Assembly (NCBI RefSeq): GCF_963921235.1
Contig: NC_086108.1
Location: 57,662,001-57,726,000 of the forward strand
DNA length: 64,000 bases
Reading direction: 5' to 3'
From: Mobula hypostoma
Lineage: Eukaryota
In this document: in pieces, positions 1-56,860 of the stretch
Numbering within the stretch: position 1 is the stretch's first letter
Layout of the letters: every line of letters starts with the position of its first letter
Program-made: the position numbers and the translations under genes
The notes under the pieces: model-generated
Told to the model about the DNA's origin: nothing
Database searches by the model: none
What the model saw: only the letters and a program-made list of their open reading frames with translations

Positions 1-87
1 TAGAGATGCTGCCTGGCCTGCTGCGTTCACCAGCAACTTTTATGTGTGTTGCTTGAAATTTCAGCATCTGCAGATTTCCTCGTGTTT
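1..87 (+). mobile_element. 3' terminus of a Penelope-like element, cut by the window edge
   Basis: Near-identical to 50778-50828 and to the reverse complement of 49045-49133 (gatgctgcctggcctgctgcgttcaccagcaacttt...gcatctgcaga). Confidence 0.85.
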
Positions 88-16220: not shown

Positions 16221-17544
16221 CCTTGAGGAAACTATCCTGAATAAAGCCTATTTTATCATGTGCCTCTAAGTATCCTGAGACTTCATCATTAATAATGGGC
16301 TCCAACCACTTCCCAACCACCATGGTCAGACTAACTGGCCTAGAGTTTCCTTTCTTCTGCCTCTCTCCCTTCTTGAAGAGTGGAGTGACATTTGCAATTT
16401 TTCAGTCCTCTGGAACCATTCCAGAATCTAATGATACTTAAAAGATCATTAAAATGCCTCCATGATCTCTTCTGCCACCTCTTTCAGAACTCTGGGGTGT
16501 ACACCATCTGGTCTTGGTGACTTATCTACCTTCAGACCTTTCATTTTCCCAAGGACCTTCTCTCTAGTTATGGTAACATCACACACTTTATACCCCGCAA
16601 CACAGGGAACCTCCACCATACTGCTATTGTCTTCCACAGTGAAGACTGATGCAGTTCGTCTGCCATTTAGTTGTCTCTCATTACTACAGCAGTCTGATAT
16701 CCACTCTCGTCTCTCTTTTACACTTCATGTATCTGAAGAAACTTTTGGTATCCTCAGATACTTCAGGTATCCTCATCTCTGTGCAAAGGGCTGGCATTAG
16801 CAGTTGAATACACTGATATATGCTGGGTCCTGCTGATCAGCTGGTGACTAGTTTCTCAGTGGAAGACTGCACCTGGTGACCTGCTTAAATTCAGAGTGCA
16901 TTTTAAGGTTAGACAAGCCTGAACAATATTTTTAAAAGAATATCAGGATGAAAATATTTTGGAAATACCCAAGATTAGCCTACATTGATAACACAAAATG
17001 ATTAAAATTGGATTGTTTTTAAGTAAGTGGTACTCACTAGAAAAGTGCCAAGTAATATATCAATAATAAGATGCATTTAGTTTGGCATGAAATTCGTACA
17101 ATTATTGAAGATGCTGAAATAAATGCTTCGGGCAAGAAAATTGCTATTTAAACAAATACTTTGAGCATGAAAAATGCTATTTAACCACCACATGATTTTT
17201 CCTCTGGTTGTATGGCTGATAGTTACAAACTGTGCAAGGGGAAATCTATGGATTGCATTAATTATTAAAATAATTTAAAAATGTATTCCTTGTATGTTTA
17301 CTTCTAAAACTGCGCAGTTTGCCTATACGCTAGTTTCAATAGAACTGGTTGCTCTGTCTCTCCCTTTTACTGTCTGCCCAGAAGGGAAACTCAGCTGAAA
17401 AATAAATTGAAATAGTCTGTTATTTTTGTAGACACTTCTAAAAGCAATATTCCTTGATACTTTTTGCATTGGTGATTCTTATGTATGTTTCACTTGTTGA
17501 AGATTGTAACTTGCAGGAAAGCGAATGATGTCCTTTTCGAGTAA

Positions 17545-17690
17545 TACACAAAATGCTAGGAAGTCAGTGGGTCAGGCAGCACCCATGGAGCGAAATGGAC
17601 AGTCAATGTTTCGGGTCAAGACCCTTCATAAGGACTCCAGCATATTGTGTGTTGCTCCAGATTTCTTGCATCTGCGTTCTCTCTTGTGAT
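17545..17690 (-). mobile_element. Short Penelope-derived element with a degenerate hammerhead motif
   Basis: Minus strand agtc-cttatga-a-gggtcttgaccc-gaaacatt-gact (17601-17636); flanks resemble Penelope termini. Confidence 0.7.
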
Positions 17691-21596: not shown

Positions 21597-22648
21597 CATA
21601 GAAACATAGAAAATAGGTGCAGGAGTAGGCTATTCGGCCCTTCGAGCCTGCACTGCCATTTATTATGATCATGGCTGATCATCCAACTCAGAACCCCGCC
21701 CCAGCCTTCCCTCCATACCCCCTGACCCCCGTAGCCACAAGGGCCATATCTAACTCCCTCTTAAATATAGCCAATGAACTGGCCTCAACTGTTTCCTGTG
21801 GCAGAGAATTCCACAGATTCACCACTCTCTGTGTGAAGAAGTTTTTCCTAATCTCGGTCCTAAAAGGCTTCCCCTCTATCCTCAAACTGTGGCCCCTCGT
21901 TCTGGCCTTCCCCAACATCGGGAACAATCTTCTTGCATCTAGCCTGTCCAATCCCTTTAGGATTTTATACGTTTCAATCAGATCCCCCTTTAATCTTCTA
22001 AATTCCAACGAGTACAAGCCCAGTTCATCCAGTCTTTCTTCATATGAAAGTCCTGCCATCCCAGGAATCAATCTGGTGAACCTTCTTTGTACTCCCTCTA
22101 TGGCAAGGATGTCTTTCCTCAGATTAGGGGACCAAAACTGCACACAATACTCCAGGTGTGGTCTCACCAAGGCCTTGTACAACTGCAGTAGTACCTCCCC
22201 GCTCCTGTACTCGAATCCTCTCGCTATAAATGCCAGCATACCATTCACCTTTTTCACTGCCTTCTGTACCTGCATGCCCACTTTCAATGACTGGTGTATA
22301 ATGACACCCAGGTCTCGTTGCACCTCCCCTTTTCCTAATCGGCCACCATTCAGATAATAATCTGTTTTCCTATTTTTGCCCCCAAAGTGGATAACTTCAC
22401 ATTTATCCACATTTGCATCTGCCATGAATTTGCCCACTCACCCAACCTATCCAAGTCACCCTGCATCCTCTTAGCATCCTCCTCACAGCTAACACTGCCA
22501 CCCAGCTTCGTGTCATCCGCAAACTTGGAGATGCTGCATTTAATTCCCTCATCCAAGTCATTAATATATATTGTAAACAACTGGGGTCCCAGCACTGAGT
22601 CTTGCGGTACTCCACTAGTCACCGCCTGCCATTCTGAAAAGGTCCCGT
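21597..22648 (-). mobile_element. Young 5'-truncated CR1 LINE
   Basis: [21 protein letters not shown]; uninterrupted 249-aa C-terminal ORF 21688-22437; (catagaaa)n tail. Confidence 0.95.
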
Positions 22649-22811
22649 TGCTGGAGGAACTCAGCAAGCCAGGCAGCGTCAGGACCTGCTGAAGGGTCTC
22701 GGCCCGAAACGTTGACTGCACTCTTTTCCATAGGTGCTGCCTGGCCTGCTGAGTTCCTCCAGAATTTTGTGTGTGTTGCTTGGATTTCCTGCATCTGCAG
22801 ATTTTCTCTTG
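22649..22811 (+). mobile_element. Short hairpin-shaped Penelope-derived element enclosing a hammerhead-like motif
   Basis: 27-bp inverted repeat (22651-22677 / 22736-22762, one mismatch) around ctgctga-a-gggtctcggccc-gaaacgtt-gact. Confidence 0.8.
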
Positions 22812-24474
22812 TTTGTTAATGAAAGAGGTCATAGGAGAATAGCCGGACTGGTTCAAGCTGACAGGAAAACAAGTATCTCAAATACTGTGTTCAGAATTGC
22901 ATCTTTGAATGCACAACACATCGAGCCTTGAAATTGGTAGGCTACAGCAGTGGAAGACCACACTGTGTTCCACTCCTGTATCTAATAAAGTGGTCCCTGG
23001 GTGTATTTCAATGTGCTCACTTAAACCTTTTCCCTGTTATTGCTGAAATCAGGGACTGAAAAGATAACAAGTACCAGCTACAAAACAGATGCACCCACAA
23101 GTGCATGATAGGAAGGAAAAGGTTGCAATTAATTTGCAATCTTTTACAAGGGAGCCTCCAAGTTGTATGTTATGCTCATTTGGAAATGAGCATGTGGTTA
23201 CTAGTCACTGGATTACAATTCTAGAGACCCCGATCAATGGCAGATTGGAGTTCCTTCACATGCATTGCAACAAGCTCATCAGTACCTGTTCAAAGGTAGT
23301 TAGTGATGGTCATTTGGTGTTGATCTATCAGCAAAGGTGAAAAAGGCATATGATGGTTAGATATATTTCTTGTTGAGGATTTGGTCGTTATTCTGTACCA
23401 CATTTGGAATGATGATTGGTTTCAGTGTTTTCAGTTATTCTCAACCAAATCCTTTTATCAGGTGGAGTGAAGTAAAATGGTCGAAAATCAACTTCTATAA
23501 TATTGGGGATCTTGGGATGAAGCTGAAATCAATAATCCATTTGGCAGAAGACCTTTACAAATTCTTCAACTAGTCCTGCAAGAAAGTGGAATCTATCAGT
23601 GTGAGTGTCGAGCAGTATGTTTGGGTTGTGTGGCTTTGGTTGAACAATTAGCACGATGAACTAGCATGGCAATTTAGGTGTGAAGCTCACAATGATGTTA
23701 ACTGTGTAAGAATAAAATGAGTATGGATATAAGGTACCAGTTCTGATTGCAGACACAGAGGTCTCCAGATGGAGCAACAAACAATCTGCTGGAGGGGTAG
23801 TGTGGAAGGAATTGTGACATTTTTTTGGGTAGAAAACCTGCATCAAGACTCAAGAAATCTGATAGATTGCTAGAAATTGGTTATAGAGAGCAATGATAGT
23901 TGTGATGTTGAAATGGCCTGTGTTCTGGGAGGTAATGTATTAGTTTGGTAAGTCCTGGTATTCAGTAATAAACATTTATATCCATTAAACTGTTTACAGC
24001 ACTGTCTGCAGGATTTCAAAAATTAATCCTGGGTGAAAAAGTTGATCGTTGCTTCAAAATGGTATATTTACACGAGTGATGTGAAGCCAATGCTTGCTTC
24101 AGTCAGGGTATACATGAAGGAATGAACCTTAAGTGAGCCAAATGAAAAATCTATTGTGTGCTACATTTGTTTGAGAAACTCTCAAAAAGTGAGAAATACA
24201 TACAGACGAACAAGACTCGCAGCGTGGAAGGAGTTTAAAATGAGTTCCATGTAAAACCAACCCAATTAGTCCTCCTACCCTGTTCATACCATAGCCATAC
24301 AAATTCTTTTCTTTTAGATGCTTATCCTGATATTTATCCTTAAATACTGGAACTGAATCAACCTCTTGCTACCATGTGCATTCCAATTTCACTCCCTAAT
24401 TAGTATAATTAAAAAAACTTGTAAATTGCTTTCATTGTAGTTCCTATAGTTTTGACGACTTGTTCAATGAAATC

Positions 24475-43108: not shown

Positions 43109-44622
43109 GTTATCGTGATATTGAAAAAGAGGAAAACCAGTTAGCACAGCCTGGCTGTATCTTTCAACCTATTGCGCTCCTTTGCTTGTGTTATCACTGT
43201 CAACATTGACCACGACTTATCCCAGCATTAACCTTGGCCTTGGCAATTGAAGACAAAAATAGCTTTTTTGATTGCTGTTTGATCTGAAATGTCAACTCTG
43301 TTAATCTTTTCACAGGTGTTGACTGACTTGCTGATTTTCTGTCTCTAACTTTTGCATTTATGATGAAAGTAATGCTGCGAGATGATATTTACCGTTCATT
43401 CAAAGTTGCTTTGTGGCCATTAAATATTAACAGTTACTGTAGAATTGGATCATGCGCAGGTTAGTGATAAGTTTCAATACAAGCAGCTTTTGGTTTACAG
43501 CAACATTTTAGAAAATCAGCACAATGTCTGTACCACAATTTGAATTAATGACAGACTTGAATTTTTCGAAGAGCCATCCATTTAACTGGAAAATGAAAAA
43601 TGTACTCTATCATAATTTTGAATTTGGATGTTGTTTTCCATAATACTTCAAATTGAAATATGATTATTTAGGTGTGGAGTTGCTAGGGTGTTATTGGAAA
43701 TTGTAGGAATAATGATACTAACTGATTAAAAAGACTATGTCATTACTTGATCTTGATATAATATCATTTAATTCCCTTAGAGACACATTGCATTGTTATT
43801 AATAGTTGTTTCCCTCATGTTATCTTTATCTGATAATGTGGCATAGTTTTACACAATTCCTATTACTGCTACATTTTCTTGTACTTTTCAAATTTAAAGG
43901 TGAAAATAAGACTATGAACAACTGTGCATAGTTTCCAGTGAATCTGTGTATTCTTTTTGCATTCTCTTATCACTTTGTAATCCGTATAGCTCAATATATT
44001 GAGATAATCAACTTTTGTAATGCAGTGGAACAGAATATCCATGAAAATGAATGGGATATATTTTCATTGTGATGATTCTCTGCCACCTTCCAAATTACAC
44101 CCTGACATTGCCCAAACAAATATCCCGCCAGCTCATCATATTTTTCCTGTGGAAAATAATGGTCTCGTCAATCTTAGAAATGAAGCAACTGTATAGCTAG
44201 TCGTGTAGAATGCCCTTGAGAGAGTATTAGTTTGCTATCTCATGGCCGAGCTGCCCGTTTTCCCCCTTTGTCCACAACAGCAAGACCATTGCTCTGTACT
44301 CTTAGTTTAATATTAATATTATTGACTACAAACAAATGTAATGCATTAATTGGCTTTTCCTGAGCATGGCATTGGAGCAGTGACATGACCTGCAAGTTGC
44401 ATGGTTACCATGGCACCCACAACCAGACACCGAGGCTCCTTTTTTGTGTCATTATCTGACTGAGTTCTTACTCACATGTAACTAATTAGTGTTCTCAGTT
44501 CTTGCAAAACCAGAATAAGAGTTAAAGATTGGGTCAAAAGATGTAAGTTAATAATAATGTTGGGTGTTGGAGGAGTATTGGGGGAAAAATCGGGAAGGGA
44601 AGGGACTTGTGATAATGAGGCA

Positions 44623-46715: not shown

Positions 46716-47534
46716 TTGTGTCAAGGGAACATGCTGCCGATAATCCCTTGTTGCACAGCCCCTCATCTGCATAGTTTTGATTATCTATTATCATTGGGAT
46801 GTCTTCATAAAGACCAATTCAAAATAATTATACATAATCTTTGACATTTCAAATTCCCCATTATAAAATTCTCAGCACCATCCTCCAAGAGACCAAAACT
46901 TTGATAATTAGGGACCCTCAGAGCTTTAGTGGTGCGGGACTGGCAGATTTTTTTTTGAACTACAGTATTGGATATTACACATTATCAAGTTTCAATTTGC
47001 CTTTTTTTTTCTTGCTACACAGGAAAATTAGAATTTTTTTTAGTGTACCAGGTGGGTTTAAAGAGACTGTGGTCAACAAAATCTGGAGAGTTTAAAGGAT
47101 GTGTGGAAATGGACCTTTAAAGGACAAATTTGGCAAACAGCTTCCTGGGTTGTTCAGAAGAAGTCCAAGAAGCCAGACCCCGGTAAATTGAAAGGAGTGT
47201 CAGTGAGTTTAAAAGGAGCGTGGGAAACATCAGTCAGTGAGCCAAGTAGTGAACTATCAAAATTGCCAAATATCAGACTTCTGCAATATCAAAGCGTAAA
47301 AAAAACTTTAAAAGTTGTTCTAAGTGGTGATCCTGAATACATCTATTAACCAGTTCTCAGGGTGATCCTTGCCAATTTATTTATCCAATTTATTTAGTGG
47401 AATTGTCTATTATTCCAATACTTTATTAGAAACCCATTATGTCTTGATTTATACCCTATGCTACAGTATAGCTGTTGTGAAATGTTTTGTATACTGCACC
47501 CACTAATGACTTCTTACTGTTACTATTTCTTACA

Positions 47535-48736
47535 CTGATGAGGGTAGAGCAGTAGATGTAGTGTATATGGATTTCAGCAAGGCATTTGATAAGGTACCCC
47601 ATGCAAGGCTTATTGAGAATGTAAGGAGGCATGGGATCCAAGGGGACATTGCTTTGTGGATCCAGAACTGGCTTGCCCACAGAGGGCAAAGAGTGGTTGT
47701 AGATGGGTCATATTTTGCATGGAGGTTAGTGACCAGTGGTGTGCCTCTGGGATCTGTTCTGGGACTCCCTCTCTTTGTGATTTTTATCAATGACCTGGAT
47801 GAGGAAGTGGAGGGATAGGTTAGTAAATTTGCTGATGACATAAAGATTGGGGGTGTTGTGGATAGTGTGGAGGGTTGTCAGAGGTTACAGCGGGACATCG
47901 ATAAGATGCAAAACTGGGCTGAGAAGTGGTAGATGGAGTTCAATCCAGATAAATATGAGGTGGTTCATTTTGGTAGGTCAAATATGATGACAGAATATAG
48001 TATTAATGGTCAGACTCTTGGCAGTGTGGAGGATCAGAGGGATCTTGAGGTCCGAGTCCATAGGACACTCAAAGCTGCTGCGCAGGTTGACTCTGTGGTT
48101 GAGTAGGCATATGGTGCATTGGCCTTCATCAATCGTGGGATTGATTTAAGAGCTGAAGGGTAATGTTTCAGCTGTGTAGGACCCTGGTCAGACCCCACTT
48201 GGAGTACTGTGCTCAGTTCTGGTCGCCTCAATGCAGGAAGGATGTGGAAACCATAGAAAGGGTACAGGGGAGATTTACAAGGATGTTGGCTTGATTGGGG
48301 AGCATGCCTTATGAGAATAGGTTGAGTGAATTTGGCCTTTTCTCCTTGGAGTGACGCAAGATGAGAGGTGACCTAATAGAGGTGTATAAGATGATGAGAT
48401 GCATTGATCGTGTGGATACTCAGAGGCTTTTTCCCAGGGGTGAAATGGCTAACACGAGAGGGCACAGTTTTAAGATGTTTGGAAGTAGGTACAGAGGAGA
48501 TGTCAGGTGTAAGTTTTTTACTCCTAGAGAGTGGTGAGTGCGTGGAATGGGCTGCCGGCAACAGTGGTGGAGGCGGATACGATAGGATCTTTTAAGAGAC
48601 TCCTGGACAGGTACATGGAGCTTAGAAAAATAGAGGGCTATGGGTAACCCTAGGTAATTTCTAAAGTATGTACATGTTCGGCACAGCATTCTGGGCTGTA
48701 AGGCCTGTATTGTGCTGTAGGTTTTCTATGTTTCTA
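47535..48736 (+). mobile_element. CR1 LINE 3' half
   Basis: [28 protein letters not shown]; tail ttttctatgtttct. Confidence 0.95.
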
Positions 48737-49144
48737 TCCAACTTGAGCTTCGAAGTCAATATCATTCCTTACTATTGTAGTGTTCATATCTTTATGAACA
48801 GAATTACCCTGCCAATTTTCTCTTCTACTGATCCTACTGAATTGCCAAGTATCTGTGAGTATTCATTTTAATCAATGAGGTGAAGCAAAGTGCAAGAAGC
48901 CTGTTTACCGAGTGAGTGCAGGTATATACCTGCTGGATAAAGTGCCTGCACTCTGGGCTGTGTATTGCAAAGTACTGTGTGATGACTGTTGAGTTTGTAC
49001 AAACATAAGGAAAACATTTTCCATGCAAACATCAAAGAGAGAATGCAAACAACAGGAATTCTGCAGATGCTGGAAATTCAAGCAACACACATCAAAGTTG
49101 CTGGTGAACGCAGCAGGCCAGGCAGCATCTCTAGGAAGAGGTAC

Positions 49145-49180
49145 AGTCGACGTTTCAGGCCGAGACCCTTTGTCAGGACT
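49145..49180 (-). ncRNA. Minimal type I hammerhead ribozyme motif (G8-to-A variant)
   Basis: agtc-CTGACAA-agggtctcggcct-GAAACGTC-gact. Confidence 0.65.
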
Positions 49181-50730
49181 AACTGAAGGAAGAGTTAGTA
49201 AGAGATTTGAAAGTGGGAGGGGGAGGGGGGGATCCAAAATGATAGGAGAAGACAAGAGGGGGAGGGATGGAGCCAAGAGCTGGACAGGTGATTGGCAAAA
49301 GGGGATACGAGAGGATCATGGGACAGGAGGTCCGGGGAGAAAGACGGGGGGTGGGGGGGACCCAGAGGATGGGCAAGGGGTATAGTCAGAGGGACAGAGG
49401 GAGAAAAAAGAGAGAGAGAGAGAAAGAATGTGTGTATAAAAATAAATAACGGATGGGGTACGAGGGGGAGGTGGGGCATTAGCGGAAGTTAATGTTCATT
49501 CCATCAGGTTGGAGGCTACCCAGACGGAATATAAGGTGTTGTTCCTCCAACCTGAGTGTGGCTTCACCTTTACAGTAGAGGAGGCCGTGGATAGACATGT
49601 CAGAATGGGAATGGGATGTAGAATTAAAATGTGTGGCCACTGGGAGATCCTGCTTTCTCTGGCGGACAGAGCGTAGGTGTTCAGCAAAGCAGTCTCTCAG
49701 TCTGCGTCGGGTCTCGCCAATATATGGAAGGCCACATCAGGAGCACCGGACGCAGTATATCACCCCAGCCGACTCACAGGTGAAGTGTCGCCTCACCGGG
49801 AAGGACTGTCTGGGGCCCTGAATGGTGGTAAGGGAGGAAGTGCAAGGGCATGTGTAGCACTTATTCTGCTTACAAGGATAAGTGCCAGGAGGGAGATCAG
49901 TGGGGAGGGATGGGGGGAACGAATGGACAAGGGAGTTCCGTAGGGAGCGATCCCTGTGGAAAGGAGGGGGGGGTGGATGGAAAGATGTGCTTAGTGGTTG
50001 GATCCCGTTGGAGGTGGCGGAAGTTACGGAGAATAATATGTTGGACCCGGCGGCTGGTGGGGTGGTAGGTGAGGACCAGGGGAACCCTATTCCTAGTGGG
50101 GTGGCGGGAGGATGGAGTGATGTGCATGAAATGGGGGAGATGCGTTTGAGAGCAGAGTTGATGGTGGAGGAAGGGAAGCCCCTTTCTTTTAAAAAAAAAA
50201 GGACATCTCCCTCGTCCTGGACTGAAAAGCCTCATCCTGAGAGCAGATGTGGCAGAGACGGAGGAATTGTGAGAAGGGGATGGTATTTTTACAAGAGACG
50301 GTGAGAAGAGGAATAGTCCAGATGGCTGTGAGAGTCAGTAGGCTTATAGTAGACATCAGTGTATAAGCACCTTATATTCCATCTGGGTAGCCTCCAACCT
50401 GATGGCATCAACACTGACTTCTCTAACTTCTGCTAATGCCCCACCTCCCCCTCGTACCCCATCCGTTATTTATTTTTATACACACATTCTTTCTCTCTCT
50501 CTCTCTTTTTTCTCCCTCTGTCCCTCTGACTATACCCCTTGCCCATCCTCTGGGTCCCCCCCCCTCATCTTTCTCCCCGGGCCTCCTGTCCCATGATTCT
50601 CTCATATCCCCTTTGCCTATCACCTGTCCAGTTCTTGGCTGCATCCCTCCCCCTCCTGTCTTCTCCTATCATTTTGGATCTCCCCCTCCCCCTCCCACTT
50701 TCAAATCTCTTACTAACTCTTCCTTCAGTT

Positions 50731-50766
50731 AGTCCTGACGAAGGGTCTCGGCCTGAAACATCGACT
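50731..50766 (+). ncRNA. Minimal type I hammerhead ribozyme motif, core intact
   Basis: Stem I agtc/gact, core CTGACGA, stem II, GAAA, then CATC with the predicted cut after AUC. Confidence 0.75.
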
Positions 50767-51079
50767 GTACCTCTTCCTAGAGATGCTGCCTGGCCTGCTG
50801 CGTTCACCAGCAACTTTGATGTGTGTTGATCAAAGAGAGAATAGTAGCTTTATCAGAGTTTGCAGCAGATTTTACAAAAGAGGCAGTAATTATGAGCAGA
50901 ATAAGTAATATCCTATCCACTGATTTTCATAGTACACTGCCCTGTGACCGGCAGGCTTACCAGAATCTAACTTGTTCCATTTTACCATTTGTTCTCTCAA
51001 TCTGTTGACTTGTACATCTGAGAGCCAATAGAATGAGAAGCAACTTGCTGGTGTCATCTCCAGGAATAAATGATACGAC

Positions 51080-54000
51080 ATGAACATAAGAACCTAAGAA
51101 ATAGGAGCAGGAGTAGGCCATCCGGCCCATTGAACCTGCCCTGCCATTCAATAAGATCATGGCTGATCTGTCTGTAAACTCAGCTCCATCTACCTGCCTT
51201 TTCCCCATAACCCTTAATTCCCTTACCATGTAAAAACCTACCTAACTGTATCTTAAATATATTTAGTGAAGAAGCCTCAACTGCTTCCCTGGGCAGAGAA
51301 TTCCACAGATTCACCACTCTCTGGGAAAAACAGTTTCTCCTCATCTCTGTCCTAAATCTTCTCCCCTGAATCTTGAGGTAATGTCCCCTAGTTCTAGTCT
51401 CACCTACCGATGGAAACAACTTTCCTACTTCTATCTTATCTATCCCTTTCAAAATTTTGTATGTTTCTTAAAAGATCCCCTCTCATTCTTCTGAACTCCA
51501 GAGAGTATAGTCCCAGGCAACTCAATCTCTCCTCATAACTTAACCCCTTCATCTCTGGAATCAACCTGGTGAACCTCCTCTACACTGCCTCCAAAGCCAG
51601 TATATCCTTCCTCAAGTATGGAGACCAGAACTGCACACACTACTCCAGGTGCAGTCTCACCAGTACCCTGTGTAGTTGCAGCATGACCTCCCTGCCCTTG
51701 AATTCAATCTCTCTAGCAATGAAGACCAACTTTCTGTTTGCCGCCTTAATTACCTGTTGTACCTGCAAGACAACTTTTTGCGATTCATGAACAAGTACTC
51801 TCAAGTCCCTCTGCACAACAGCATGCTGCGGTCTTTCACTATTTTAATAATAATCTGCTCTTCTATTATTCCTTCCAAAGTGGATGATCTCGCATTTACC
51901 AATGTTGTATTCCATCTGCCAGACCTTGGCCCACTCACTTAACCTATCTATATCCCTCTGCAGACTCTCCACATCCTCTGTACAATTTGCTTTTCCACTC
52001 AGTTTAGTGTCATCAGCAAATTTTGCTACGCTACCCTCAGTCCCCTCTTCCAAATCATCAATGTAAATGGTAAACAGCTGCGGGCCCAGCACCGACCCCT
52101 GTGGCACCCCACTCACCATTGACTGCCAACCAGAGAAACACCCATTTATACCAACTCTCTGCCTTCCATCGGTTAACCAATCAACTATCCATGCCAATAC
52201 ACTTCCTCTGACTCCATGCATCCGTATCTTATTTGTAAGTCTCTTGTACAGCACCTTATCGAATGCCTTCTGGAAATCCAAGTATATGACATCCACCTGT
52301 TCCCCTCTATCCACTGCACTCATTATGTCCTCAAAGAACTCCAGTAAGATGGTCAAACAGGACTGGCCCTTTCTGAATCCATGCTGCATCTGTCTAATTG
52401 AACCACTCCTTTCTAAATGTTTCACTATTTCTTCCTTAATGGCAGCTTCAAGCATTTTCCCGACTACAAATGTTAAGCTAACTGGCCTATAGTTGTCCAT
52501 CTTTTGCCTACATCCTTTTTTAAAAAGTGGTGTGACATTTTCTGTCTTCCAGACCGCTGGGACCTGCCCAGAATCTAGAGAGTTTTGATAAATGATTAAC
52601 AACGCATCTACAATAGCCTCCTCCAATTCCTTCAGCACCCAGGGATGCAACCCATGAAGACCAGGGGACTTAACTACCTTCAGGTCCTCCAGTTTTCTCA
52701 TCACTATCTCTTTAGTGACAGTGATTTTATCGAGGTCCTCACCTCCCATTTCGTCCATAACATCCTTCTTTGGCATATTAGACATGTCCTCCACCATGAA
52801 GACTGACACAAAATAGTGATTCAGTGCCTCAGCTCTTTCCTTATCACCCAATATTAATTTCTGCTTTTCATCTTCCAAGGGACCTACGTTGACTTTAGTC
52901 ACCCATTTTCACTTTATATATTTATAAAAACTTTTGCTATCTGTTTTCATATTTTGTGCTAATTTACTTTCATACTCTCTCTTCCCTTTCCTTATCTCTT
53001 GTTTAGTTGTTCTTTGTTGCTTTTTAAAGTTTTCCCAATTCTCCAATCTCCCACTACTCTTTGCAACTTTGTACACATGATCTTTTAATTTGATACTATC
53101 TTTTATTTCCTTAGTTATCCAAAGCTGGCTCTCCCCACACTTACTGTCCTTACTTTTGACTGGAATGTACTTTTGTTGAACACTGTGAAGAATTTCTTTG
53201 AAAGTATTCCACTGTTCCTCAACTGTCCTACCAAATAACCTGTGCTCCCAATCCACATTAGCCAACTCCTCCCTCAGCCTGTTGTAGTCTCCCTTGTTCA
53301 AGCATAATACACTAGTTTTTGATCTATTTTATCCTCCATATGAATGAGAAATTCAATCATATTATGATCACTCTTTCCAAAAGGATCCCTGACTACAAAG
53401 GTCGTTAATCTTACCTGTCTCATTGCACAGGACTAGATCTAAGATAGCATTTTCCCTTGTAGGTTCACTAACAGACTGCTCAAGAAAGCTATCACAGATA
53501 CATTCTATGAAGTCCTCCTCAAGATTTCCTTGACCAACCTGATACACCCAATCTCTGTGGAAGTTAAGATAACCCGTGACGACTACCGTTCCATTCTTAC
53601 AAGCCACGGTTATTTCTTGGTTGATTGCCTCCGCCACTGCAATATTTTTATTAGGTGCCCTATAGACAACTCCCACCAGTGATTTTTTTTCCCTTTACTA
53701 TTCTTAATCTCTACCCAGATGGACTCAACATTCTGCTCCGTAGATCTTGTATCGTCTTTCACAATTGCCCTGACCTCATTCCTTATCAAGAGCACCACCT
53801 CACCTCCTTTGCTTTCTTGCCTATCTTTCCGTATTACCTGATACCCTTGTATATTTAATTTCCAGTCATCTCCACCTTGCAACCAGGTTTCTGTAATGGC
53901 CACTAAATCATATGCCTTGGTACTGATCTGTGCCACAAGTTCATTAACCATGTTTCTGATACTACGGGCATTTAGATAAAGTGCCCTTATACTCATTGTC

Positions 54001-54538
54001 CTTTTAGAATCTAGTGACCTATGCGATTTTTGCTTTTTACTTTTATGCACTCTACTCTTACTTTTTTCTTCACTAACTCTAGCTTTGGTCTCTGCATCAC
54101 TTCCCTCTTCTTTTCTGTACTGGCTCCCATCCCCCTGCCATATTAGTTTAAAAACCCCCCAACAGCACTAGCAAACAATCTCCTCGGACATTGTTTCCTG
54201 GCCCTGCCCAGATGTAGACCATCTGGACAGTACTGGTCCCACCTCCCCCAAGAATCTGAAACCCTCCCTCCTGCATCACCACTCAAGCCACATATTCATT
54301 TTAGCTATCCTGATATTCCAACTCTGGCTAGCACGTGGCACTGGTAATAATCCTGAGATTATTACCTTCGAGGTCCTGCTCTTTAATTTATCTCCTTGCT
54401 CCCTAAATTCAGTTTGTAGGACGTCATCCCGCTTTCTTCCTGTATTGTTAGTACCTACATGCACCACGACAGCTGGCTGCTCATCCTCCCCTTTCAGAAT
54501 GCCCTGCAGCCTCTCCGAGACATCTCTGACCCTGACAC
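51080..54538 (-). mobile_element. Long CR1 LINE (ORF1 esterase end, EN, RT, 3' UTR)
   Basis: VHVGTNN (ORF1); YLNARSI..AITETWL (EN); 352-aa RT ORF 51844-52902 with YLDFQKAFDKV, SGVPQGSVLGP, KFADDTK. Confidence 0.96.
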
Positions 54539-55379: not shown

Positions 55380-56860
55380 GGAGTCCTCATTTGTATTTCT
55401 TCCATTTTCTCTGCTGCTCTACCCTACCTCACCCATCCAGAGAGCACAGAGATAGAATTCCCTTAATTCTCACCTTTGATCCTATCAGCCTTTGGATCAG
55501 CACATCATCGTTCATCATTTCTGCCAGCTGTAATGTCATCCCACCACCAGCTATATCCCTCGCTCCCCACCCCTTTTACCACTAGATCAGCAAGTGCTTG
55601 TGCTTGGGAGGGATGAAAGTATTGTGGATATATCTCAGCACATCATGAAAACCAGCCTCCCATCTATGGACTCTGTGTATACTTATCACTGCCTCAGTAA
55701 AACTTCCAGCATAAAGACTCCATCTACCTTAGACATCCTCTCTTCTTTCCCCTTCCACTGGGCAGAAGATACAAAAGCCTGTAAGCACGTACCAGCAGGC
55801 TTATGGGCAGCTTCCATCTCAGTTTTATCAGACTATTCAATGGTTCCCTGGTATGATAAACTGGGCTCTTGACCTCACAATATACCTCATTATGGCCTTG
55901 CATTTTATCATTCACCTACAGTAAACTTTCTTATAAAACTTCATTCTGTACTTTTACTGTTTTATCTTGTACCATCTCAATGCATTATTGTAATGAATTG
56001 ATCTGTTTGAACAATATGCAAGTTAAGTTTCTCCACAGTACCTTGGTATATGTGACATGAATAAACCAATCTACATAGACTTAGTGACTATTTTTTTTGA
56101 AATTCCTGGTTGTATGCCATTTCATCTCTCCTACACACTCACATGCTGACCTGTCTTTCCCCAGCTGAGACCAAATGCAAACAGGAACAGCACTTCATTT
56201 TCTGTTGGGAAGTCTACAAGCCAGGAACGTTAACATTGAATTTTCCAACTTTAACAAGAGTCTCTATGGAGCTGTTGGAATCTGATATGCAAAGAAGGGG
56301 GTCACAGGAAGAAACAAGTAAGGGAGGGGGTAAAGGGACGGATAGAACCAACTGAGGAGTGTGAATTGATTTATTATTGTCCCATGGACCGAATCGACAC
56401 TGCCTTTGCTGCTGTTTCTCTCCTATCCTCCTCCCTCAGCTGATTCTCTCTGTTCCTTGTCTGCTTCCTCTTCTGACATGCCTGACCTTTGCATGTCAGA
56501 TTCCAGCACCTACAGACTCATGTTTCCCATATTATCTTCCAGTCTCCGTTTCTGTCGCCATTCTCTCCTTTCCGAGGTGGTTTCATCTGTCCCTTTTTTT
56601 TTCACTCCTCCTCCTCCCTTATCCGTCTCTACTTACCACTGTCTTTTAACTCCACCCAGCCTCCCCCACATACTCCATCTGCCCATCATCTCCCCCTCCC
56701 CTGATTCCCCTGCCTTGCCCCTTTCTCACCTCTTTATACTGCCTATCTGCTTTCCACACTGATGCAGGGTCTTCATTAACCCCTTGTCTGCACGGATGCT
56801 GTTTGACCTGCTGAGTTCCTCCAGTTGCTCTTGGTGTTCTACATTCCAGTATCTCCATTA
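55380..56860 (+). mobile_element. Old Penelope-like 3' remnant, interrupted by a Rex1 3' end (about 55610-56070)
   Basis: RDRIPLILTF, CKQEQHFIFCW..PG; ctgatgcagggtct..gatgctgtttgacctgctgagttcctccag terminus. Confidence 0.65.

Follow-up and report, generated by a model that had tools for sequence, protein, structure and literature searches.

A likely single, dead Neptune-type Penelope-like insertion with head-to-head copies and opposite-strand hammerhead motifs in Mobula hypostoma

We analyzed an insertion in the genome of the ray Mobula hypostoma, located at positions 49045–50828 of a 64,000-nt window (RefSeq assembly GCF_963921235.1, contig NC_086108.1, positions 57,662,001–57,726,000; positions below count from the first letter of this window). 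An original prediction had described it as a Penelope-like element (PLE) folded into a hairpin, with a hammerhead ribozyme motif in each arm. The best explanation, to which we give a probability of roughly 0.86, is one dead, 5′-truncated insertion of a Neptune-type element that stands head-to-head with a shorter, tail-less copy and is likely without function today.

Boundaries, coding remnant and age of the insertion

The whole unit is bracketed by an exact 14-bp target-site duplication (TSD), ATCAAAGAGAGAAT, at 49031–49044 and 50829–50842, for which the chance probability is about 5e-5 when 50 nt of slop is allowed at each end. Aligned with each other, the two arms differ by 17 substitutions over 452 bases and by gaps of 9, 3, and 1 nt (96% identity), and a spacer of 829 nt separates them. 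This alignment, which the original prediction had proposed as a check, bears out its description of one 14-bp TSD around a minus-strand element and a near-identical inverted copy of the 3′ end. At the join, base 50368 is common to both copies, as seen from family continuations of loose contig ends. The inverted orientation and 5′ truncation of the second copy are those of the pseudo-long terminal repeats (pseudo-LTRs) of endonuclease-bearing PLEs, and the TSD (14 bp) and the one-sided tail (38 nt, for an expected 30–40 bp) likewise agree with such elements. The tail sequence recurs in window copies at 1–87 and 22692–22815. The features are as follows, with the basis of each assignment.

49031–49044, no strand: left TSD copy, an exact direct repeat with a single occurrence in the inferred empty site of organism D (below)
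49045–49082, minus strand: tail, a 38-nt 3′ extension at the left end only, with no mirror in the right arm
49083–49538, minus strand: left arm, comprising, from the long copy, the final open reading frame (ORF) codons and the 3′ non-coding pseudo-LTR sequence (aligned with the right arm)
49145–49180, minus strand: left minimal hammerhead, G8 to A at 49171, predicted cut after C17 at 49149 (sequence, PMC4209133 consensus, anole G8C result)
49479–50368, minus strand: broken ORF remnant with reverse transcriptase (RT) thumb, C-x4-C-x2-C linker, and GIY-YIG with CCHH (tblastn, motifs)
50362–50376, no strand: head-to-head junction with the 6-bp inverted repeat TATAAG-cac-CTTATA (sequence)
50368–50828, plus strand: right arm, an inverted second copy of the 3′ end, tail-less, more truncated, 461 nt (alignment)
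50711–50732, plus strand: splice-acceptor-like stretch before stem I (TACTAAC, pyrimidines, CAG), mirrored at 49200–49179 on the minus strand (sequence)
50731–50766, plus strand: right minimal hammerhead, intact core, G16.2 to A at 50760, predicted cut after C17 at 50762 (sequence, consensus)
50829–50842, no strand: right TSD copy, an exact direct repeat

At the left boundary, ATGCAAACA occurs both at 49023–49031, just before the left TSD copy, and at 49043–49051, across the TSD end. The last bases of the tail could pair with the target beside a bottom-strand nick, and the repeat may also be due to chance.

The ORF remnant is 5′-truncated, with an in-frame stop at 49737–49739, frameshifts upstream of it, and the terminal stop at 49479–49481. 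In tblastn searches it matched residues 70–387 of the Mobula hypostoma protein P0002 (E 9e-113), and the best matches among 17 proteins showed identities of 88% in Mobula, 73–80% in Hypanus, 62% in whale shark, and 46% in sea urchin. The RT core was lost by truncation: the remnant aligns to the region after the core in P0002, P0008, and P0013, and RVT_1 was detected in P0008 and P0013 at E values of about 1e-4 to 1e-5, under the cut-off. Residues of the endonuclease (EN) can be seen as VIY..CxxC..YIG, AEH, and ATHF, with one codon of the Cys region read as a stop. We call the domain GIY-YIG because the remnant shares 88% identity with the ray protein and the relative P0008 passes the Pfam GIY-YIG cut-off; on these grounds the predicted minus-strand GIY-YIG element is retained, its own Pfam score being sub-threshold. 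The linker CKQNKCYTC fits the pattern CX2-5CxxC between RT and EN, which is found in Neptune and also in Nematis and Naiad (PMC8557442). Naiad is ruled out because the EN is C-terminal here. By the definitions of PMC8557442 the element is, as judged from its sequence, a Neptune-type Penelope-like retrotransposon.

We compared the region 48850–51050 with assembled contigs from four of 24 public runs, all 24 of which consist of contigs: X1 (organism A), X5 (organism B), X10 (organism D), and X12, a putative RNA run. Single-copy contigs of organism A read through the left and the right outer junction and show 0 differences. In organism B, one flank contig extends into the tail by 21 nt and the contig on the right begins at the last base of the element, which suggests that this organism shares the insertion. 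For organism D we detected one 357-nt contig at depth 6.8 that fits 50829–51050 (222 nt) and carries 107 further letters, while the left flank at depth 6.8 spans about 48926 to 49030 (105 nt) with a 2-nt insertion, again 107. Because these 105 + 2 nt of left flank equal the 107 extra letters of the contig at the same depth, the site seems to be empty in organism D, where the 14-mer would stand once. Flank differences amounted to 7/439 to organism B and 18/222 to organism D, that is, 0.8% and 4.1% per lineage. The divergence of each arm, 1.9% (1.2% without CpG), lies between these two values, in agreement with arms that started out identical when the element inserted.

Hammerhead motifs in the two arms

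The motif in both arms was identified by its fit to the metazoan minimal hammerhead consensus NNN CUGANGAH GNNNNN..NNNNNC GAAAN NUH NNN (PMC4209133). The right motif consists of a first stem I strand AGUC, the core CUGACGA, an extra A, stem II GGGU-CUCG-GCCU, then GAAA-C-AU-C and the closing stem I strand GACU; the left motif departs from it at position 8 (A) and position 16.2 (G). Stem I (AGUC/GACU) has 4 bp, with a fifth U-G pair possible, and stem II (GGGU/GCCU) has 4 bp with a G-U pair at 10.1/11.1, a pair present in published examples too (PMC4209133). All elements named in the original prediction (stem I agtc/gact, a CTGACRA core, stem II, and GAAAC-R-TC) were present in both arms, and its assignment to minimal type I hammerheads holds by the consensus fit; an Rfam search of 48500–51500 returned no hammerhead family up to E 10 and one unrelated match (E 4.9). 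The CUGANGAH core is complete in the right arm and broken in the left (A8 with C3 kept), and the palindromic 15.2–16.2 sequence for a dimer helix III is present in the left arm and absent from the right. The isolated motif stems, at −7.0 kcal/mol, are the minimum free energy (MFE) fold of the right motif; the MFE fold of the left motif differs.

In the anole element, the G8C change abolishes cleavage (PMC11167929), and a natural A8 variant is accompanied by U3 (PMC4209133). With C3 kept, G8A in the left motif breaks the C3-G8 pair, so that this copy is predicted to be dead. The right motif may be merely weakened, given that NUH is kept and that the C-AU-C form is listed for a coelacanth family (PMC4209133).

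Family variants resemble each other from 50731 onward, where 570, 437, and 335 contigs have loose ends, and they diverge beyond 50768 in organism D (306 contigs); the motif is therefore a conserved block. Summed contig depth over the motif relative to the flank was about 3e5x in X1, 2e5x in X5, and 6e4x in X10, which is not a copy number and serves as a rough sign of a huge family.

Both motif lesions, at G8 and G16.2, are CG>CA transitions. Twelve CpG sites are present in at least one arm, four of them inside the motif, and losses affected 2/8 site-copies inside the motif versus 4/16 outside (Fisher p 1.0). For all substitutions, the counts were 2/36 in the motif and 15/416 elsewhere. At the observed rate, the probability that each arm loses at least one motif CpG is 0.47. 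The original prediction had taken the lesions of the two arms to be complementary. Both exist, A8 on the left and A16.2 on the right; their significance does not survive, since CpG loss is equally frequent inside and outside the motif and one loss per arm is expected with p ~0.47, and we rejected complementarity as meaningful. Nor can the lesions compensate for one another: the motifs are carried by opposite strands, and in either transcript 35 of the 36 motif bases are predicted to pair with the other arm. The apparently complementary defects are most likely routine CpG decay. More generally, seemingly complementary defects in duplicated CpG-rich motifs call for caution, arising by chance about half the time.

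The predicted ancestral motif, CUGACGA..GAAACGUC, is likely to have been canonical. G8 is kept in three of the four readable window copies and in both Mobula protein models that span position 8 (where it is read as Asp-Glu), and both lesions are CG>CA. The four-copy counts omit the copy at 1–87, whose motif lies beyond the window, and two overly decayed copies at 43.3 kb and 56.8 kb. The two copies with A at position 16.2 are explicable by CpG decay. Position 11.1 is U in both arms and C in 2/2 other readable window copies; the shared U is either a subfamily allele or the result of two separate decays.

The original prediction had further held that a transcript from either strand would contain one motif and long double-stranded RNA (dsRNA). 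This stands as a statement of sequence; as a working arrangement it does not, since the motif would be buried and lacks a same-strand dimer partner. In the MFE fold of either strand there are about 440 long-range pairs, with 35 of the 36 motif bases paired to the other arm, and the predicted local duplex reaches −72 kcal/mol, versus −7 for the hammerhead fold. In this model, any read-through RNA would enclose the motif within a duplex of about 450 bp. Because the copies are head-to-head, a transcript from either direction makes the antisense arm first, and a same-strand dimer partner is absent at the locus, the two motifs lying on opposite strands. In X12, depth was 0 in all five pure-flank bins and family sequence was deep; this is a single sample and does not amount to silence. 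Places with A>G plus T>C numbered 33 in X12 and 36 in the DNA run X1, family-wide counts from unmatched individuals that are hence uninformative about editing.

The splice-acceptor-like stretch abuts the motif. Its TACTAAC is perfect, its CAG adjoins stem I, and another AG forms the start of stem I. At the putative branch A (50716), organisms A and B show T in 15–17% of the depth and organism D in 98%. In the Penelope element of D. virilis, the 3′ end of an intron maps to helix I (PMC4209133).

Formation of the inverted arm and rival explanations

Among models of how the head-to-head arrangement formed, we lean slightly toward dual priming from two nicks. The endonuclease would nick both strands, 14 nt apart, and each 3′-OH would prime the copying of element RNA by RT, starting in one case at the tail end and in the other 38 nt upstream. 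Both complementary DNAs (cDNAs) would stop early, at 1324 and 461 nt, and repair would then join their 3′ ends, probably via a short snap-back, in keeping with the idea of snap-back end-joining. In the parent element, the hammerhead would have acted in the processing of long tandem precursors, cleaving them either as a dimer or with the aid of protein, and it would simply have been copied twice here, after which both arms presumably decayed neutrally. Several observations are consistent with this series of steps. Each TSD 3′ end runs directly into antisense (first-strand) element sequence, at the tail end on the top strand and at the tail-less end on the bottom strand. The anole PLE protein is a predicted dimer that cleaves and extends both strands, and its RT starts at two tail-bounding sites (PMC11167929). 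A junction stem of at least 6 bp arose in 0.9% of simulated junctions (p ~0.009; post hoc). The sixth base of the palindrome encodes Tyr, where 10 of 12 pattern-matched homologues have Ser and none has Tyr, and such a non-family base is what short snap-back synthesis would leave. That this copy is a clean fossil of inverted-end building, by dual priming at two tail-bounding starts and a snap-back join, is a tentative proposal that we hold as somewhat doubtful.

A number of observations weigh against the reading given here. Pfam assigned no family to any of the five ORF pieces of the remnant, its GIY-YIG score was 12.7 bits against a cut-off of 22.6 with the stop read through as X, and the Neptune clade was assigned by motif, without a tree. 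The junction contigs of organisms A and B reach 1–23 nt into the element, and those of organism A, at 22–23 nt, fall under the 31-letter bridging rule. The joint of the empty site is not among the 15 joints listed of 2531, and no contig among those listed spans the inner junction. G at position 16.2 is found in only two of the four readable window copies, and the family difference rows listed, 40 of 194, do not cover positions 8, 11.1, or 16.2. Dual priming is drawn from one copy and from the behavior in vitro of a Poseidon-clade protein, and both nicks follow AT, neither being the 5′-ATT-3′ preferred in vitro by the anole protein.

A different account of the formation step only, and one that we consider rather unlikely, is that self-priming or fold-back on one template, possibly an antisense one, produced the inverted arm. 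Such a route has been proposed from junction palindromes and antisense-template self-priming (PMC3846280), and the 6-bp junction palindrome (p ~0.009, post hoc), with its sixth base off-family (Tyr vs Ser), would suit it, as would the fact that U11.1 is common to both arms, as are the majority alleles at positions 50716 and 50723. However, pure fold-back predicts a perfect palindrome, and here 829 nt of ORF separates the arms; fold-back alone gives no reason for the right arm to stop precisely at the tail-less start site beside the TSD, and a 6-nt snap-back is also compatible with the end-joining of two cDNAs. LINE-1 twin priming, in which two primers from a staggered target yield an inverted 5′ part within one TSD pair, differs in that the inverted piece there is an upstream, non-overlapping part of the RNA, whereas here it duplicates the 3′ end. 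Two independent insertions, a later rearrangement, or an assembly error would be a very improbable origin. An abundant family invites misjoins, and among the contigs listed none reaches across the inner junction or covers the entire stretch; yet one exact TSD surrounds both copies and the empty site is inferred, grounds on which we rejected the two-insertion reading, and two miniature copies in the window show the same head-to-head layout. An assembly copy is further opposed by 17 differing sites and 3 gaps between the arms, with private changes at 49255 on the left and at 50409, 50414, and 50598 on the right. Miniature inverted-repeat or terminal-inverted-repeat DNA transposons have inverted repeats symmetric to both termini and a transposase origin; this candidate was rejected on the one-sided 38-nt tail and the retroelement ORF codons held in the arms. 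We also rejected a non-LTR retrozyme, as the locus has inverted arms and an ORF remnant and there is no tandem unit among the direct repeats.

Two further alternatives concern the motif itself. We think it improbable, at about the same level as the fold-back route, that the hammerhead-shaped motif is non-cleaving in this family and is kept as a transcript 5′ boundary, a splice acceptor, or a protein-binding element, a matter of the biology of the parent element. Minimal hammerheads cleave poorly even as dimers (PMC4209133), and cleavage in the anole requires protein and is dispensable for insertion in vitro, with no RNA-seq ends reported at the anole cut (PMC11167929). Family likeness starting at stem I (50731) points the same way, as do the six of 15 joints listed that fall at 50731/50735 and the acceptor-like sequence abutting stem I. 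Against a non-cleaving motif, the core, GAAA, and NUH are all kept, and the window copy at 17.6 kb carries a structure-preserving change in stem II, U-A for U-G; as for an acceptor, 98% of the depth in organism D has T in place of the putative branch A. That the locus is a working RNA device, with mutually complementing hammerheads or a hairpin kept for small RNAs or editing, we regard as highly implausible. The insertion is apparently common to organisms A and B, the arms are still 96% identical with about 440 long-range pairs, the right motif keeps its core and NUH in a C-AU-C form found in a coelacanth family, and three Mobula gene models contain this motif region from other copies. Nevertheless, the decay rate of the motif equals the rate outside it, arm identity matches the expectation from insertion age, complementing would need sense and antisense transcripts, which would anneal, and nearly all motif bases (35/36) pair with the other arm in either transcript.

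Known systems, other copies and implications

Typically, a PLE insertion has an inverted, 5′-truncated copy at its 5′ end and a 30–40 bp tail on one side, and its pseudo-LTR contains a hammerhead (Craig 2021, PMC8557442 Fig. 2), a layout that a curation guide repeats (PMC8969392). Inverted PLE insertions with 8–10 bp TSDs have been described in Adineta (Arkhipova et al. 2013, PMC3846280), one published figure shows a second hammerhead, on the opposite strand, at the 5′ end of a truncated PLE (Cervera and De la Pena 2014, PMC4209133 Fig. S4A), and Schistosoma has opposite-strand hammerhead pairs 100–700 bp apart (PMC4209133). The prediction of a Penelope-like insertion with an inverted partial pseudo-LTR and a minimal hammerhead matches these layouts (PMC8557442, PMC3846280, PMC4209133), and the locus is an ordinary dead copy whose arrangement, including the opposite-strand hammerhead, is already in print. 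A literature search by title or abstract opening, made outside Repbase and Dfam, found no paper on this ray family; the available part of supplement file 2 of PMC4209133 names no cartilaginous fish, and that of PMC3884650 added nothing decisive.

Compared with the canonical endonuclease-bearing PLE insertion, the locus shares the 5′ truncation, the inverted copy at the 5′ end, the one-end tail, the TSD around the whole unit, the junction palindrome, and the pseudo-LTR hammerhead, and differs in having no upstream direct pseudo-LTR (no partial tandem). Relative to Adineta (PMC3846280), the TSD is 14 bp rather than 8–10 and the junction palindrome 6 bp rather than 18–38. With the hammerheads of PMC4209133 the motif shares the CUGANGAH core, an extra base before G10.1, GAAA-C-GU-C, a short stem I, and the absence of a helix III loop, whereas the G10.1-U pair and one CpG hit per copy set it apart. 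It is nearly the same as that of the Acropora Neptune element, with the same core and C-GU-C, and its 4-bp stem II resembles that of Acropora rather than the 7–8 bp of Schistosoma (PMC4209133). The Anolis Poseidon element PAc (Frangieh et al. 2024, PMC11167929) has the same 3′-end hammerhead and a tail sized between two RT starts; it belongs to another clade, the Cys linker is present here, and the PAc ORF starts at stem II, whereas no start was located for the ORF at the present locus. Non-LTR retrozymes (bioRxiv 10.64898/2026.07.22.740005) likewise have a PLE-derived type I hammerhead, but are non-coding tandem units with same-strand motifs, in contrast to the ORF remnant and opposite-strand motifs here. 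According to the same source, retrozymes were found in the single chondrichthyan genome surveyed, and five vertebrate classes contain Neptune and Poseidon elements.

Within the window, miniature head-to-head copies lie at 22647–22815 and 17536–17675, with the inverted piece attached at, or immediately beside, the point where stem I begins. Further copies include a tail-bearing end at 1–87 (plus strand) and a decayed motif at 43281–43337 (plus strand), and at 55418–56856 (plus strand) lies the remnant of an old PLE that has diverged and whose motif is degraded. Outside the window, the Mobula gene models P0019, P0020, and P0023 include the translated hammerhead/tail region of other copies; the products carrying this region are a STARD3NL isoform, an uncharacterised protein, and a coenzyme A synthase. 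In P0020 the likeness begins approximately at the acceptor-like site. These models may reflect exonisation or annotation noise. They came from sense-frame pattern scans of the protein database, of which one gave four matches (P0019 and P0020, which are real, and two low-complexity matches that were not used) and the next gave three (P0019, P0020, and P0023). An antisense-frame scan of the protein database for the family motif gave no match. Pattern scans for further copies gave 0 matches in viral contigs and 0 in prokaryote genomes, and five matches in metagenomes were discarded as unrelated chance matches with no hammerhead upstream.

The insertion lies between long interspersed nuclear element (LINE) remnants of opposite orientation, at 47500–48620 (plus strand) and 51000–54200 (minus strand), which are CR1-like by eye with RT-like frames, and LINE-type repeats dominate the window. 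No host exon was recognisable by eye among the frames listed (of 235 of at least 55 aa), these being remnants of LINEs or other repeats instead. Other close inverted repeats are found at 107–162/285–338 (86% over 56 nt) and 40011–40049/40313–40351 (97% over 39 nt).

In itself the locus matters little, being one of very many dead copies, each feature of which has been published. Its value is that of a well-bounded example, with a TSD, a probable empty site, and datable arms, for studying the origin of inverted pseudo-LTRs and one-sided tails. Were the hairpin to prove transcribed and processed, so abundant a family might contribute a large amount of dsRNA in rays. If the copy is indeed a fossil of dual priming, a family on the order of 1e5 copies, together with empty sites in related rays, would allow a genome-wide test.

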